Origin: an uncultured virus (IMG/VR IMGVR_UViG_3300046507_000407)
Lineage: Duplodnaviria; Heunggongvirae; Uroviricota; Caudoviricetes; Schitoviridae
Virus record (IMG/VR): IMGVR_UViG_3300046507_000407
Reading direction: 5' to 3' (one strand)
DNA length: 20,000 nt
Shown here: positions 2,832-16,539 of the stretch, piece after piece
Layout: every line of letters starts with the position of its first letter
Numbering within the stretch: the first letter of the stretch is position 1
Made by a program: the position numbers and the translations under genes
Notes under the pieces: generated by a model
Seen by the model: the letters and a program-made list of their open reading frames with translations, nothing else
Told to the model about the DNA's origin: nothing
Databases searched by the model: none

Positions 2832-4178
2832 TTACGCCTGCACTACACCCGGCTTCCAGTAAGACTGACGCTTCGTCTTGTTGGTGACCGTGAAGTTGTT
2901 GAAGGTGTAGAGACCAGCGTCCTGCACGTAGACCGTCGGTGACAGGCTGGTCGTGCCCGGTGTGACCTTGAACTCCTGCGAGAAGATCACGTCCCGGATG
3001 GTCTTGTCCGCATTGATCGGACGCACGTTTCCATTGCCGGCCGGATTCTCGACATCGATCGACACCGTCAGGCCACCTGCCGTGGCGAGGTTCAGTGCCG
3101 GACCCGTGACCCGGCCACTGAATTCCAGCACGTCACCTGCCACCCAAGCAGCCGGATCGACCGAGCCAGCGAGTGCATAGGCACCGCCATTGGCGGCCAT
3201 CGTGTACTTGAACAGGTTGCCGCTCGAACGGGCCAGTGCCGTGTCTGCCGTGCCCGGTACCAGTACCGTGGCATTGTCACCGACCGAACCTTCGCCCCAG
3301 CCACCCATGTAGCCTTCGGCCACCTTGAAGTTGAAGCACCCGTTCTGCAGGATGTTGTGCAGACGGCCCGAGTCGGCCACTTCATTGGCCGAGGACAGGT
3401 ACACCTGGTTGAGCGCCAGCTGCGGATTCTGCAGGAAGTACGACACATAGGCCGCAATCGCATCGGCACCGGCCTGATTCGGGTGGACCCCGTCATCGGA
3501 CAGACCGGCACGGAAGCCACCGGTTGCTGTGTCACAGGTGAACTTGAACACGTCGATCAGCGGCAGGCCGTAGTACGCCGCGAGGTCGTACAGGAACGGG
3601 ATGAAGTCACGCGTCTCCGACCAGCCCGTGTTGTCCTGGCCAAGGCCAGCCTGCGTCTTCGCCGGGGGCGTGACGAGGATCGGGATGATGCCATTGGCGA
3701 GCGACTGCTGGACGATCCACTCGTAGTCGTCGAGCACGTCGGCCATGCCGGCAAACGAGATGCCCGTGGTGATCGAGTTGGTGCCTGCCATAAACAGGAT
3801 CGCTTCCGGCTGGAACGGCAGCACGTCCGTGGCAAAACGGGCACGCATCTGCGCAACCGTGTTCCCACCGACGCCCGCATTGGCCAGGTACGTGAAGCGC
3901 GCAGCACGACGGATCGCATTCTCGGCATAGCCGTTGCCCGCCTGCCAGTAGCCGTTGTTCAGCGTCGAGCTGTTCTGCGTGATCGAGTCACCGAACGGCA
4001 GGATGCGGCGGATACGCGAGAGGTTCACTTCCTTGACCTTGTCCGAGCCAAGGATACGGAAGGCACCCGTGGCATCCTTCGATCCCCACTGGCCATTCTC
4101 ATTCGGGAACAGCGAGCTGTAGCCGATGTCCGGCGTATCCGTCAGCGCTGCTGCGGTATTTTTCAGTACGAGTGGCAT
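2832..4178 (-). CDS. SGNH/GDSL esterase, probably a tail-associated polysaccharide deacetylase, with a C-terminal beta-rich domain
   Basis: All four SGNH blocks are present: FGDSIT, NAGVGGNT, AGTNS and DGVHPN. The gene lies in the tail gene cluster. Confidence 0.85.
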   Translation of the reverse strand: MPLVLKNTAAALTDTPDIGYSSLFPNENGQWGSKDATGAFRILGSDKVKEVNLSRIRRILPFGDSITQNSSTLNNGYWQAGNGYAENAIRRAARFTYLANAGVGGNTVAQMRARFATDVLPFQPEAILFMAGTNSITTGISFAGMADVLDDYEWIVQQSLANGIIPILVTPPAKTQAGLGQDNTGWSETRDFIPFLYDLAAYYGLPLIDVFKFTCDTATGGFRAGLSDDGVHPNQAGADAIAAYVSYFLQNPQLALNQVYLSSANEVADSGRLHNILQNGCFNFKVAEGYMGGWGEGSVGDNATVLVPGTADTALARSSGNLFKYTMAANGGAYALAGSVDPAAWVAGDVLEFSGRVTGPALNLATAGGLTVSIDVENPAGNGNVRPINADKTIRDVIFSQEFKVTPGTTSLSPTVYVQDAGLYTFNNFTVTNKTKRQSYWKPGVVQA

Positions 4179-11923: not shown

Positions 11924-13513
11924 TCACACGATGTATGCAGATAGCCCACTGGGTTCGGAGTGTTCCTCCTCGTCCTCGTAGATTTGCACTTCGCTGGGGG
12001 TTGCCGGCGCTGAATCGGATGGCTTCCACGGCTTGAGGAACGCCAGTTGGGACACGGTGTCCACAAAGTCGTCCTTGCCTTTGATACCCGACTGAGTGAC
12101 CAGTTTGATCTGGCCCATCGCCCGTCCCATGATGACGGAGTGCTTCATCTCTTCCGGGAAGAACATCTTCCCGACCTTGAACCAAGGAACAACCAGATTG
12201 AAGCGGGAGAGCTTGTCGGTGATTGGGCGTATGCCAGGAGAGCCACTCTTCTCGCTACTTGCGAAGCTAAACCAGATGTTGCGTCTGATCTGCTCCTGCT
12301 GAAGCCAGGAGATGAAGCCGCCCTGCTGTCCCGTGATCTCGATGCCTACCTGCTGCGGTTTGTACTGCTGAACGAGACGGAACAGATCGTCGACCGTCTT
12401 GTCCATTTTCTGACGTTCCAGGACACCATCTACCCAGAACCAGTCACCGTTGGAATTGTATGCCCAAACGCTGATGGCGGAGAAGTCGGCCGTGGTTTTT
12501 TCGCTGGTTGCGAAGTCCGTCGTGATGTAGAAGTTGAATGTGCTGCGGTTCTGCAACAGAAGTTTTCGGGAGTACCAACGGATCTCCTCGTCCTGCACGA
12601 GCCGCTCCTCGTCCGACGAGATGCGCAGCATCAGCTCCTGCATGAACGCCGCGACGTGACCGGTACCGACGGCGAGGTCGTACTGGTCCTTCACGTACTT
12701 GAAGTTGAAGCGATCCGGCCAGGCGCCGACGAACTCCGACTCCTCGCACGGGAAGCGCTCGCACACCGGCCACACGTTCACATCCCACTGCCCCGACTCG
12801 ACCGCCTCGATCAGGATGTCGTCCTTGTTGAACGGCGTGCCGTTGAAGATGATCTTGCGCCGGGTCGGATCGAGCGCGTGGTTCACGCCCTTGTAGACCG
12901 TGTCCTTGATCGCAATCATCGCGGCCTTGGACTTCGAGTCGTCGTCCGACACCAGGTCATCGAGCACGCACAGCTTGGGCCGCTTGCCGAAGATCTTCGT
13001 GCCACGGATACCGGTCTTCGCACCGAACATCTTGATGCCCAGGCGGTGGCCGTCCTTGCCGGTGAACTCCAGGTAGTTGTCGGTGAAGGTGGCCTTGGGG
13101 ATCCAGTACTGCAGGAACTCCGAGTTGTTGTAGCGGAACTCGATATTCTTGCGCGCGGACTTCACCCCGTTGTCCATCGAATCGGACACATAGATCATCG
13201 ACTCCACACTGCCGAAGCCGGGCAAGTAGCCAAACACTGCGAGGAACAGGGAAAAATACTCGAAGAAGAGAGTAGTTTTCGCTGCACCCCGGAAACAGAG
13301 GTTAGCGATGTAGTCGGACTTCGATTCGACTACCTTGTCCAGCATCTTCAGGTGAACCGGTGGTGTCTTGTGAGATTCGCCCTGTTCCCCATTCACGAGC
13401 TTGATGAAGTTCATGAAGGTCAGGGCAAACTCACTTGGCGTGTAACTCGCAGAGTTCAATTCGGCATAATTGACCTGGTCGAGCCACGCATCAAGCTCTT
13501 GTTTGATCATCAT
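11924..13513 (-). CDS. terL: Terminase large subunit (N4 gp68-like)
   Basis: Walker A CFRGAAKTT, Walker B LCVLDD, coupling motif FNGTP, and nuclease acidic residues in ITTDFA and KDDFVD. Confidence 0.95.
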   Translation of the reverse strand: MMIKQELDAWLDQVNYAELNSASYTPSEFALTFMNFIKLVNGEQGESHKTPPVHLKMLDKVVESKSDYIANLCFRGAAKTTLFFEYFSLFLAVFGYLPGFGSVESMIYVSDSMDNGVKSARKNIEFRYNNSEFLQYWIPKATFTDNYLEFTGKDGHRLGIKMFGAKTGIRGTKIFGKRPKLCVLDDLVSDDDSKSKAAMIAIKDTVYKGVNHALDPTRRKIIFNGTPFNKDDILIEAVESGQWDVNVWPVCERFPCEESEFVGAWPDRFNFKYVKDQYDLAVGTGHVAAFMQELMLRISSDEERLVQDEEIRWYSRKLLLQNRSTFNFYITTDFATSEKTTADFSAISVWAYNSNGDWFWVDGVLERQKMDKTVDDLFRLVQQYKPQQVGIEITGQQGGFISWLQQEQIRRNIWFSFASSEKSGSPGIRPITDKLSRFNLVVPWFKVGKMFFPEEMKHSVIMGRAMGQIKLVTQSGIKGKDDFVDTVSQLAFLKPWKPSDSAPATPSEVQIYEDEEEHSEPSGLSAYIV

Positions 13514-14202
13514 CAGGGTATCTGTTTCGCCTCCACGTCAACCACATCCACCAGACGCTGCGCTGCGATGTCCCTGGCTGTGGCTCCATTAGCGATGAGT
13601 TCACGTTGTTGCTGGCTCATCTTCTGCAACATGTCCTTGAGTTCCGACATTCCTGAACTCTCCTTCATGTCAATTGGAATCAGTGCGGTTACTTCCTTGG
13701 GTTTACTCAGGTGAGTGAGCAGTGAGTTGGCTGCTTCTGCCCTTACCTTCTCACTCGCCGCAGTTCGCATGAGGGTGGCCTGGGTTGTGATCGCCTCCTG
13801 GTACAGGTGGTTGTTCAGTACCCAGCTCGGCACGATGGTCTGTTCGAGGATCAGGTTGACGAGCTTGCCTTTGGCATAGGCCGACGTGTAGGCCGAGATG
13901 GTCTTCTCGTCGGCGCCCTTGGCCATCAGCGCCGCCATGCGCTGGGGGAACGTCTTGAAGTAGGCGTCCTTGATGGAGTCGCCCATCATCCGGTAGCTGA
14001 CGAAGGCCACCGCGTGCACGTAGTCCTCGGCCTTGAACTTGCCTTCCTTGAGCACCGACGTGTAGCTGATGACGTTGTTGCGCACCTGCTCGGCTACGAG
14101 CGGATCCGCGGCGATGTTGTTGATGAGGTCCACGAGCTGCGGGGTCACCGCGCTCTTCAGTGTGGCGGGCAGTGCCCGTTCGACGACTTCCTTGGTCAGC
14201 AT
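13513..14202 (-). CDS. N4 gp69-like protein, putative terminase small subunit
   Basis: 229 aa helical protein with a TGATG overlap into terL. Contains YTSVLKEGKFK..DY..AV.FVSY and SEKVRAEAANSLLTHL. Confidence 0.75.
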   Translation of the reverse strand: MLTKEVVERALPATLKSAVTPQLVDLINNIAADPLVAEQVRNNVISYTSVLKEGKFKAEDYVHAVAFVSYRMMGDSIKDAYFKTFPQRMAALMAKGADEKTISAYTSAYAKGKLVNLILEQTIVPSWVLNNHLYQEAITTQATLMRTAASEKVRAEAANSLLTHLSKPKEVTALIPIDMKESSGMSELKDMLQKMSQQQRELIANGATARDIAAQRLVDVVDVEAKQIP

Positions 14203-14205
14203 GAC

Positions 14206-14307
14206 TCAGCCCTCCCCGCCTATCTGGCAGACCGTCCATGCGAGCCAGGCCATACACACCAGGCACCCGGAGATGAGCACGCCCACTCCAACACCAGTCC
14301 AGAACAT
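14206..14307 (-). CDS. Small membrane peptide (33 aa)
   Basis: MFWTGVGVGVLISGCLVCMAWLAWTVCQIGGEG with an AGGGGA SD; fills the gap before the gp69-like gene. Confidence 0.55.
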   Translation of the reverse strand: MFWTGVGVGVLISGCLVCMAWLAWTVCQIGGEG

Positions 14308-14328: not shown

Positions 14329-14350
14329 GCAAGGGGCCGAAGCCCCCTGC
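14329..14350 (-). promoter_or_regulatory. cUUCGg-capped RNA hairpin (stability, processing or weak terminator)
   Basis: Minus strand GCAGGGGGC-TTCG-GCCCCTTGC, just after the stop at 14360. There is no U-tract on this strand. Confidence 0.6.
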
Positions 14351-14359
14351 TGTTTTCCC

Positions 14360-14884
14360 TTAGCCGCGGATGCCTTCTGCTTTCTGGATCCGCTTGGTGA
14401 GAATCCACACCAGCTCCTCCATGCAGTCGCGCTGCTTGACGAGGTAGCGGCGGTCGGCGTCGTCGAGCTTCTCGAACGCCGGCGTACCGATGAAGGCCAT
14501 CAGCCTTTGGTATTCGTCGCTGCGGTCGAGCAGCTTCTGCTTCACGCGGTCAAGCCAGGAACCAGGGGAAGGAACGGGGTTCTGGTCAGAGAGATGCAGC
14601 TTGTGGGCAAGCACGGCGCCGAGTACCGGCCAGATCTTTTCCTGGGCTTCCTTGAGAGCAATGCTCTCGCCCATGGCGGCATTGAAGTTTTCCTTGCTGA
14701 CGCAGCTCGACTCGCCCGTGACCGAGAAACGGCCACCGAAGATCTCGATGCAGCAGACAGTCGTGCGGCCATTCGGCAGGACGGTGTAGGTCACCTTGCC
14801 CTCCCGGATAGCAGCGTCGACTTCTTCCTTCGTGACACGCGGGGCAACAGCGGCCGCGGCCAGTTTCTCTTCTGTGACTTCCAT
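14360..14884 (-). CDS. Fusion of an N4 Gp49/Sf6 gp66-family domain and a crAss001_48-like helical domain; candidate anti-defence sponge
   Basis: N-domain PRVT...TTVCCI...FSVTGESSCVSKENFNAAMGESIA...A.EKIWPVLG, then a Pro-rich linker, then C-domain WLDRV...L.AFIGTPAFEKL...L.KQ...M....ILTKRI. Confidence 0.75.
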   Translation of the reverse strand: MEVTEEKLAAAAVAPRVTKEEVDAAIREGKVTYTVLPNGRTTVCCIEIFGGRFSVTGESSCVSKENFNAAMGESIALKEAQEKIWPVLGAVLAHKLHLSDQNPVPSPGSWLDRVKQKLLDRSDEYQRLMAFIGTPAFEKLDDADRRYLVKQRDCMEELVWILTKRIQKAEGIRG

Positions 14885-15024
14885 AACTTGGTTCCTTGTT
14901 TCCTTGGTTCGTTTACGTTAGAGTCCTGACATGGACTAAACGGATACTAAAGTCTATCTGCGAATTAGTCTATAGATATGAAAGGAAGGTGTCGCTAAAC
15001 TGTCAGCCTTTCGGGGGATGTGAC

Positions 15025-15216
15025 ATGCAGAAGTGGTTCAACGGAACGACGCCGGCCCAGAAGGTGTTCCTCTGGGTGATCGGGGTGGCACCGATGGTGG
15101 GGCTGGGGCTGACGCAACATGACACGCTCGGTGCCCTGGTCCTGACCTGCCCCCCGGTGCTGCTGCTGATCTACCTGCAACTCGGCACCCGCAAGGGCAA
15201 CAAGCGCACCACCTGA
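15025..15216 (+). CDS. Small two-TM membrane protein (63 aa)
   Basis: MQKWFNGTTPAQKVFLWVIGVAPMVGLGL...GALVLTCPPVLLLIYLQLGTRKGNKRTT with a GGGGGA SD before the ATG at 15025, GC3-rich codons and a basic tail. Confidence 0.7.
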   Translation: MQKWFNGTTPAQKVFLWVIGVAPMVGLGLTQHDTLGALVLTCPPVLLLIYLQLGTRKGNKRTT

Positions 15217-15300
15217 TTTATTTTTTCTGGCAGGACTTTTCCGACTCTATTTCCTTATGGGAATGGGAGGGTTACTCCTATGGTTGCTGCGCAACAGGCA

Positions 15301-15594
15301 GGAGGGGGAAGCCAATCAAACTGCTGTATACGTTAACCAGGCTGTGTTAACGTCTGGCTGTGGAGGGGTTGGCCACTTCCCCTTCCACTCTTGGTCGAGC
15401 GTCTGCGTTAGCTTCGTTTCGATACCCTAGCGGGCGTGGGGAATCAATAACCACCGCAGTTGCAGCTGGCGAACTCCTCTGCTGGACTGACATTCCAGCA
15501 GCTAGTCAGTGATGCGATGTCGAGCCTGAACGACTAATCAGTCAGGACATAAGGGAGAGCACGGTTACCCAACTGCTGCTCTCCCTTGTCTTTT
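15301..15594 (+). ncRNA. Candidate structured non-coding RNA or ssDNA element
   Basis: Nested stems, a possible pseudoknot and a terminal long hairpin with T-run, and no credible ORF. See findings. Confidence 0.35.
15546..15594 (+). terminator. Long hairpin with T-run, probable intrinsic terminator
   Basis: GAC..AAGGGAGAGCA-CGGTT-ACCC-AACTG-C-TGCTCTCCCTT-GTC-TTTT. Confidence 0.65.
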
Positions 15595-15902
15595 GTGGAG
15601 CCAGGAAAGACAGACAGTTAGTTGCATCCACATCAACGCGAGCTTGCTCCACGAGCAAGCGAGTCAGTCCCCATCCCACCCCGCTTATAGAGAAAAATCC
15701 TCGCCAAATTTTTTGGACGAACCGGATTGTCGTGTGCCTAAAAAAGAGGCAACGGTTTCCAGAAATTCTCATAGCTAGGTTCCATCGTAGGGTGTGGCGC
15801 TTGGGTCGGGTACACACGTACACCACCCCCCCGGTCATCAACGCTATGTGGTATCTCATGCCACCCCTGTTTGCTGGGGCTGCTGTACACACTGCCTACA
15901 CT

Positions 15903-15913
15903 CGGCTACGCCG
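15903..15913 (+). promoter_or_regulatory. Virion RNA polymerase hairpin promoter, copy 1
   Basis: CGGCTACGCCG; the template strand forms CGGC-GTA-GCCG with a C-GDA-G triloop. Confidence 0.75.
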
Positions 15914-16092
15914 CTGCGAGTACTGATCTCGGTGGTGTCATCACTGTGTGCTACGTCACCACACTCTCACTGTCATTGCACTCTGACTGTACATGCAGAG
16001 CACACACATTCAGATACTACTGAGCATGAGCTTGCTCCGTCTCTATATGGAGTGAGTGATCAGTCAGTGCCATGCCAGTGTTCTAGCTCTAT

Positions 16093-16105
16093 TCGGCTAC
16101 GCCGA
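16093..16105 (+). promoter_or_regulatory. Virion RNA polymerase hairpin promoter, copy 2
   Basis: TCGGCTACGCCGA with a 5-bp stem, upstream of the first early gene. Confidence 0.8.
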
Positions 16106-16197
16106 TGCTGGCTAATTCCCTTCTCTCTCTTTTCTTGGTTGGGCCTAAACACTAGGCTCTACCTCTTTCCTCTAACTTATCTCTACTGGAGTTCATT

Positions 16198-16539
16198 ATG
16201 TCCACAGCACGCATGACGTTTGGCACGGTCCTCGGCACGGTTTCGGATGCAGCAGTTGCTGTCTCCACCACTCTCGGTGCTGGCATCAAGGGCATCAACA
16301 TGCTCGATGAGTTCGTCACGGTTGCAGCGCTGAAGCAGAAGGCACGCAATGTCGTCGAAGTCGAAACCTTCGCTGTCCGCTTGCAGGAAGAAGTGGCCAT
16401 GGAGGAAGTCGAGCGTCAGATCAAGCTCGTCGAGTTCACGAGCAAGTCCGATGCACACAAGGCTGCATTCGAAGCATCGTTCGATCGTATCGGCGCATTG
16501 CTGGCCAAGCACAAGATCGGTATGCCTGTCTCGGCGTAA
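16198..16539 (+). CDS. First early gene product (N4 gp1-position hypothetical protein)
   Basis: 113 aa with a GGAG SD, directly downstream of the hairpin promoters and followed by a terminator. Confidence 0.8.
   Translation: MSTARMTFGTVLGTVSDAAVAVSTTLGAGIKGINMLDEFVTVAALKQKARNVVEVETFAVRLQEEVAMEEVERQIKLVEFTSKSDAHKAAFEASFDRIGALLAKHKIGMPVSA

Follow-up and report, generated by a model that had tools for sequence, protein, structure and literature searches.

We analyzed a 20,000-nucleotide stretch of DNA from an uncultured virus (IMG/VR record IMGVR_UViG_3300046507_000407; the whole stretch is referred to as the window); it forms the right arm of an N4-like phage (Schitoviridae). A gene on its minus strand, at 14360..14884, encodes a genuine fusion of an Acb4-like and a Sequestin-like domain, an additional example of a published and tested design, and its product is probably a two-module anti-signaling sponge. 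An earlier reading, made from the sequence alone, had proposed that this one polypeptide could neutralize two signaling-based defense systems, CBASS (cyclic oligonucleotide-based antiphage signaling system) and Thoeris. Such a double activity was shown experimentally for the homologous fusion Ab09 gp59, as described in the text of a preprint (Fedorova et al., bioRxiv 10.64898/2026.06.04.730250), so the idea is not new, and for the window protein it is supported only in part, because the glutamate of the Sequestin pocket is replaced by a lysine (Lys117). The window gene thus adds an example of the dual-sponge design and not the principle. New here are Lys117, the absence of a third domain that close relatives carry, and the location of the gene at the head of the terminase/late block. 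With its natural change from Glu to Lys at an essential residue, the Sequestin half could serve as a ready-made test of what determines ligand choice in this family.

Domain identity and predicted structure

The gene and its parts are as follows.

14360..14884, minus strand: Acb4-Sequestin fusion gene, 174 amino acids (aa), ATG start (open reading frame [ORF], Pfam, PHROG, BLASTP, and AlphaFold2 model)
14600..14836, minus strand: Acb4-like domain, residues 17-95, two helices, three strands, and one long helix
14558..14587, minus strand: proline-rich linker DQNPVPSPGS, residues 100-109 (translation)
14384..14557, minus strand: Sequestin-like helical hairpin, residues 110-167 (PF21825 match and AlphaFold2 model)
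14534..14536, minus strand: codon AAG for Lys117, the position of the essential Sequestin Glu
14560..14831, minus strand: cassette that cannot be aligned with the related viral contig L005, comprising the Acb4 core and the site of a middle domain absent from the window protein (blastn)

Using the curated gathering score of Pfam as the threshold for domain membership, we found that the window protein matches PF13876 (Phage_gp49_66) over residues 17-95 (62.2 bits versus a cut-off of 27; E 6.6e-17) and PF21825 (crAss001_48) over residues 110-167 (36.6 bits versus a cut-off of 24.8; E 4.2e-9). Both assignments are far above chance. They agree with the sequence-only reading, which had placed the N-domain in the N4 Gp49/Sf6 gp66 family and had taken the C-domain, for which two helices are predicted, for a helical hairpin of the crAss001_48/T4 Y16Q type; the ORF on the minus strand, the two domains, the linker, and all the motifs quoted in that reading are present in the translation. 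The links made there between PF13876 and Acb4 and between PF21825 and Sequestin are likewise correct according to the preprint texts cited below. Furthermore, a single PHROG, phrog_3934, spans residues 10-170 (E 2.9e-42), and NCBIfam contained no model matching the window protein.

According to the text of Chang et al. (bioRxiv 10.1101/2024.12.30.630793), SPO1 Acb4 belongs to PF13876 and is a tetramer that binds four molecules of 3'3'-cyclic GMP-AMP (3'3'-cGAMP). The same text states that all eight Acb4 homologues tested, diverse sequences included, bound this ligand, and that the fold resembles double-stranded RNA (dsRNA)-binding domains. PF21825 was named Sequestin by Tal et al. (bioRxiv 10.1101/2025.07.12.664507), who selected it because no other family is fused as frequently to Acb4 (91 fusions counted in Pfam) or to Tad2 (60 fusions); its members, among them T4 Y16Q (printed "Y16O" in the text), are described there as antiparallel dimers that bind 3'-cyclic ADP-ribose (3'cADPR).

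The closest characterized counterpart considered is gp59 of Pseudomonas phage vB_PaeP_C2-10_Ab09 (HG962375 ORF59, 147 aa), which combines these two Pfam domains in identical order; both phages are N4-like. The two proteins are collinear, residues 32-168 of the window protein aligning with residues 16-144 of gp59 (31% identity over 137 aa, E 9e-23, BLASTP), and the window protein differs by a longer N-terminus and by the proline-rich linker. In the text of Fedorova et al., gp59 is an Acb4-Sequestin fusion that is tetrameric by size-exclusion chromatography with multi-angle light scattering; taken separately, the Acb4 part is tetrameric and the Sequestin part dimeric. It binds 1''-3' glycocyclic ADP-ribose (gcADPR) tightly, 3'3'-cGAMP weakly, and also 2'3'-cyclic di-AMP (2'3'-cAA). 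Its inhibition is strong for type I Thoeris (given as "Thoeris II" in the legend of Extended Data Fig. 10 and as type I in the main text) and partial for type II-A CBASS. The same domain combination occurs in the PF21825-Acb4 fusion of Pseudomonas phage YH6, which Tal et al. modeled as a homotetramer (Fig. 1C of that preprint).

The AlphaFold2 model of the window protein had a mean predicted local distance difference test score of 95.5, which drops to 77 in the linker block. Its secondary structure is helix-helix-strand-strand-strand-long helix, followed by a helical hairpin (helices 110-132 and 142-169); in this model, the Sequestin-like domain corresponds to the short all-helical hairpin of about 60-80 aa that is typical of the family. 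The three-stranded sheet, the N-terminal helices, and the long C-terminal helix of the N-domain superpose on SPO1 Acb4 (PDB 9e4w), which confirms at the structural level the Acb4 assignment of the sequence-only reading. In a Foldseek search of the PDB, all 13 matches at E <= 0.001 were chains of 9e4w (best E 5.8e-5), and dsRNA-binding domains ranked after them. The single-sequence comparison with SPO1 Acb4 gave an E value of 0.024; a profile of 63 two-domain Acb4-Sequestin fusions (alignment A1, window protein included) matched residues 16-86 of the 9e4w chain with E 1.1e-10. SPO1 Acb4 differs in being a stand-alone protein of 96 aa, whereas the window Acb4 is part of a fusion. Taken together, these results support the Acb4 half well.

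By homology with SPO1 Acb4 and Ab09 gp59, the Acb4 module would form a tetramer, and pockets at the interfaces of its protomers would sequester CBASS-type cyclic dinucleotides, namely, 3'3'-cGAMP and possibly cAA species. The Sequestin hairpins would pair as antiparallel dimers hanging off this tetramer. In relatives, such dimers capture the type I Thoeris signal 3'cADPR (1''-3' gcADPR); the pocket of the window protein has Lys117 in place of the ribose-binding Glu.

Ligand pockets and Lys117

In the Sequestin half, R113, K117, Q151, and R165 of the window protein align with R7, E11, Q45, and R59 of T4 Y16Q and with the equivalent positions in Ab09 gp59, Paxi, and Axy22. The pocket spacing (R/x/Q/R, 4/34/14) is that of T4 Y16Q. 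T4 Y16Q, SequestinA, and SequestinB are stand-alone proteins of 60-80 aa with Glu at the second pocket position, where the window protein has Lys. The T4 protein is the sole PF21825 match of that phage (64-aa ORF, 67.3 bits) and was called Y16Q by its length and by the fit of its four pocket residues to the SequestinB numbering. Position 117 thus corresponds to E12 of SequestinA and to E11 of SequestinB and T4 Y16Q, and Glu is also found at this position in Ab09 gp59, Paxi, and Axy22. All 62 other rows of A1 have Glu there, and this column is the only fully conserved one at which the window protein differs. The codon is AAG in the window and GAA in L005. The sequence-only reading had held that missing pocket residues would speak against it; in the Sequestin half, three of the four ligand residues (R113, Q151, and R165) are present, and the essential Glu is replaced.

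Several observations weigh against a protein that captures both signals. In the Acb4 pocket, the SPO1 ligand contacts K36/F48/E49/V56/Y57/F62/N63/I66/T70/K81 correspond to R40/F53/S54/C61/V62/F67/N68/M71/I75/P86, so that only four of the 10 contacts (R40, F53, F67, and N68) are kept or conservatively replaced; the guanine-reading E49 has become S54, and the phosphate contacts Y57, T70, and K81 have become V62, I75, and P86. Ab09 gp59, which has a pocket similar to that of the window protein, binds 3'3'-cGAMP weakly according to the text of Fedorova et al. In the Sequestin pocket, Glu was present in 116 of the 117 Sequestin domains among 169 retrieved proteins, the exception being a protein (P0001) that is 99% identical to the window protein, and Tal et al. 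state that substitution of this Glu by Ala abolished activity in both SequestinA (E12A) and SequestinB (E11A). No solved Sequestin structure was retrieved from the PDB by sequence or profile searches or appeared among the Foldseek and VIA matches listed, and a consensus promoter scan found no promoter on the minus strand, which carries the gene.

The Acb4 half is nevertheless expected to work. Its pocket retains the aromatic and Asn core and has lost the polar contacts, and the residues found are typical of the clade of fusions, F53 occurring in 50, C61 in 56, and F67 in 44 of the 63 proteins of A1. The anti-Thoeris half, on the other hand, cannot be assumed, because a residue that is essential by mutation is replaced. 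Judged from its sequence, we class the Sequestin half as a family homologue and not as a proven 3'cADPR sponge. That it still blocks type I Thoeris appears somewhat doubtful, and we consider it rather probable that it is weakened or altered in its ligand. Searched alone against PDB sequences, the C-domain gave matches at chance level only (E ~1), and profile searches returned Acb4 only; a crystal structure of the gp59 Sequestin domain is reported in the preprint text of Fedorova et al. No related locus with Lys117 was found in scans of metagenomes and viral contigs, which returned just one and two related loci, respectively, and no short stand-alone relatives of the window C-domain were found in a search for them.

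A weakened pocket could mean that the protein is a sponge with a single function, in which the Acb4 half works; E117K would have abolished 3'cADPR binding by the Sequestin half, which would persist only as a dimerizing clamp that cross-links or stabilizes the Acb4 tetramer. We regard this as a real possibility, though not the favored one. The loss of activity in E12A and E11A of two Sequestins is in its favor, as are the uniqueness of Lys117 among the 117 domains apart from the 99% identical copy, which suggests a recent change, the identity of the last 29 residues of the window protein with those of the L005 protein, and the dimerization of the gp59 Sequestin domain by itself, as given in the preprint text. 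However, the published mutants of this residue are Ala substitutions only, and a hydrogen bond to a ribose hydroxyl is still possible with Lys. The ligand residues of SequestinA are R8, E12, Q47, and R61, of which E12, Q47, and R61 abolish activity when replaced by Ala and R8 does not, as stated by Tal et al.; the three pocket residues other than Lys117 are intact in the window protein. The ratio of nonsynonymous to synonymous substitutions (dN/dS) of the whole Sequestin module against L005 is 0.15, a pairwise value that cannot isolate the window lineage, and the gene is under purifying selection.

Another reading of the same residue, which we consider unlikely, is that Lys117 joins R113, R121, and R165 in a more basic pocket whose preferred ligand is a nucleotide signal other than 3'cADPR. 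It would account for a charge reversal at a ligand-contact position in a pocket that is otherwise retained; ligand range varies in other sponge families, and close relatives show the gene to be a hotspot of mosaicism. The variant, however, occurs in just two near-identical sequences. There is accordingly a small chance that Lys117 is a specificity switch and not damage, the reversed charge at the ribose-binding position retuning the pocket to another immune nucleotide. If true, the protein would be the first natural Sequestin with a new ligand, at a second anti-signaling locus heading a late operon.

Relatives, domain X, and mosaicism

A search of representative proteins returned 2,492 sequences at E <= 0.001, and the 169 retrieved proteins were sorted with purpose-built hidden Markov models of the domains. 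Most were Acb4-Sequestin proteins, either with a short linker (83) or with an insert of more than 50 aa (33); the remainder were Acb4 proteins without Sequestin (52) and one protein with the reverse order. In 31 of the 33 insert-bearing proteins, which include the closest relatives of the window protein, the insert is a conserved domain that we term domain X. In these close relatives (P0003-P0020 and L005), it forms an extra domain of about 70-95 aa at the site of the linker. The three-domain Acb4-X-Sequestin proteins of L005 (2407-3213), P0003, and P0004 are at the same locus as the window gene and differ from its product by carrying domain X. Sites related to domain X are as follows.

L005, 2407-3213: three-domain gene
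P0003, residues ~117-186
L008, 1477-1971
L007, 592-990
L009, 6143-6694

Domain X comprises about 70 residues, belongs to phrog_872, and has the motifs TYVGTKVV.A.PM, GYLVEY, and YISWSPKDVFE. It had no match in Pfam and no sequence match in the PDB, and the protein Atlas returned only unnamed viral clusters for it, with scores <= 0.85. It occurs in 134 phage records. Besides the three-domain form, there are fusions of domain X with Tad2 (Klebsiella phage phi1_146050), with Sequestin alone (Bacteroides phage BF1-TP2), and with either end of Acb4. An hhalign comparison (96.5%, E 1e-9) showed homology between domain X and the N-terminal domain of the RyR Tad protein CB1 gp68; a preprint describes the latter domain in its text as strand-swapped, dimerizing, and inactive by itself.

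Two other identities of domain X were considered and rejected. One record annotates an X-bearing protein as Tad2 (DUF2829); Pfam shows no Tad2 in that protein, and in phi1_146050, domain X adjoins a separate Tad2 domain within one protein. Lockin was dropped on the basis of its description only: it is reported in the text of Tal et al. to be absent from complete phage genomes, and domain X is present in the 134 phage records.

The comparison with L005 shows how closely related phages differ at this site. Its terS and terL genes are about 88% identical to those of the window at the DNA level (dN/dS 0.08), and the three-domain gene lies at the same site. Homology between the two loci covers the 5' region and the first 18 codons, the residues of which are identical, and resumes from codon ~109 onward; the intervening 272 nucleotides (nt) cannot be aligned. 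In accordance, the flanks in blastn (14957-14832 and 14559-11375) were ~87% identical to L005, and the interior gave only a 69% match over 134 nt. Synonymous divergence between the window and L005 was higher in the Sequestin module (0.72) than in terS (0.36) and terL (0.24).

A midpoint-rooted tree of 33 rows was built from the two domains that these proteins share, without the columns of the linker and domain X. The tree, which is approximate owing to recombination, placed the window protein in a clade of 21 rows (Shimodaira-Hasegawa-like approximate likelihood ratio test, 97) that contained 16 three-domain and five two-domain forms. Its well-supported branches force at least four changes of architecture. 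The likeliest explanation is that the window protein is a secondarily shortened form. Phages with near-identical terminases thus carry different versions of the gene, with a swapped Acb4 core and with or without the middle domain, which points to rapid reshuffling of modules.

Genomic position and regulatory signals

The sequence-only reading had placed the gene first in the minus-strand block, next to the probable genome end. This placement holds, except that a plus-strand ORF and about 1 kb without long ORFs intervene. The minus-strand genes of the window are those for the portal, spanin, endolysin, tail fibers, a structural protein, terL, the putative terS, a 33-aa ORF, and the fusion protein; the fusion gene is the first long ORF of this block and is followed by the 33-aa ORF, the putative terS, terL, the tail genes, and the portal gene. 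The terL DNA is ~77% identical to those of the N4-like Achromobacter phage Axy13 and Pseudomonas phage inbricus. Neighboring features are as follows.

11924..13513, minus strand: terminase large subunit (phrog_38, E 1.2e-93)
13513..14202, minus strand: putative small terminase, 229 aa, phrog_2109 (function unknown in PHROGs); the Paxi gene at the same position is annotated as terminase small subunit
14206..14307, minus strand: 33-aa hydrophobic ORF (MFWTGVG...GGEG) between the fusion gene and the putative terS; the ORF is conserved in L005 with many substitutions
14330..14350, minus strand: stem-loop, GC-rich and with a UUCG loop, immediately downstream of the stop codon (-19.1 kcal/mol, z -2.68)
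14892..14897, minus strand: Shine-Dalgarno-like AAGGAA, 7 nt upstream of the ATG, invariant in all four related upstream regions
14896..15216, plus strand: ORF of 63-106 aa, the likely product starting from MQKWF (~63 aa); no PHROG match
14900..14985, minus strand: conserved upstream block TAGAC...ATAGACTTTAG...TTTAGTCC-loop-GGACT (alignment of four related loci)
16198..16539, plus strand: homologue of N4 gp1, the first left-end gene of N4 (tblastn, 40% identity, E 5e-17, N4 166-477)

In a phage collection, 523 records matched the window protein, 57 of them over at least 80% of its length. Among the matches listed, 38 of 40 rows (21 distinct phages) were on the minus strand and 1.4-5.2 kb from the right end of records of 72-78 kb. 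In Paxi, the match immediately precedes the annotated terS and terL; in Axy22 and L005, ORFs that agree in size are arranged in this same order beside the terminase genes. The gene for Ab09 gp59, in contrast, is at 41.5 kb in the primase-virion RNA polymerase hotspot, whereas the window gene is upstream of the terminase genes and beside the genome ends; gp59 also retains the Sequestin Glu. The terminase-side position in many N4-like phages therefore differs from the published hotspot and suggests a second anti-signaling locus. We found no description of a terminase-side fusion locus in the paper texts searched on Acb4 and N4-like phages. Since the gene heads the late/packaging block, its product may be made together with structural proteins that can trigger such defenses, and the second locus may be co-expressed with them.

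This conserved position beside terS and terL could also reflect a role in DNA packaging or virion assembly unrelated to defense, and the likeness of the Acb4 fold to dsRNA-binding domains would fit such a role. We consider it very improbable: both domain families have demonstrated sponge activity in the preprint texts, the same fusion is located elsewhere in the Ab09 genome, and in phages with terminases ~88% identical in nucleotide sequence, the central part of the gene has been swapped, as is typical for accessory genes and not for core ones. From its sequence, the upstream block at 14900..14985 possibly contains a weak sigma-70-like promoter and a 5' hairpin at 14922-14937, which is weak (-9.6 kcal/mol, z -1.3). 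The stem-loop at 14330-14350 could be a terminator or an mRNA-stability element between the sponge gene and the packaging genes; L005 also has a hairpin after the stop codon at this position, but with another sequence. The 33-aa ORF may encode a small membrane protein.

The physical genome ends are most likely between 14885 and 16198, because the homologue of N4 gp1 starts at 16198 on the plus strand. A search for repeats in 14885-16200 found short two-copy families only, and Rfam had no match within the window. A stretch of ~277 bp (14958-15234), which includes the ORF at 14896-15216, is missing from L005, where 20 bp are found instead. The product of this ORF resembles a small membrane protein, and the insertion looks like a moron-type element oriented divergently to the sponge gene. 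The ~1 kb at 15230-16190, which separates the late block from the gp1 homologue, has no convincing ORF; parts of it are conserved in L005 (73-77% identity), and the terminal repeat and early promoters are presumably located there.

Two further genes of the window were noted. In the tail-gene region, the minus-strand gene at 2832-4178 encodes a 448-aa protein that matches lipase/esterase PHROGs (phrog_6102, E 3.9e-28) and may be a tail-associated depolymerase or esterase. In the early region, the plus-strand sequence at 18242-18799 matches DprA-like DNA recombination-mediator proteins (phrog_768, E 1.1e-55).
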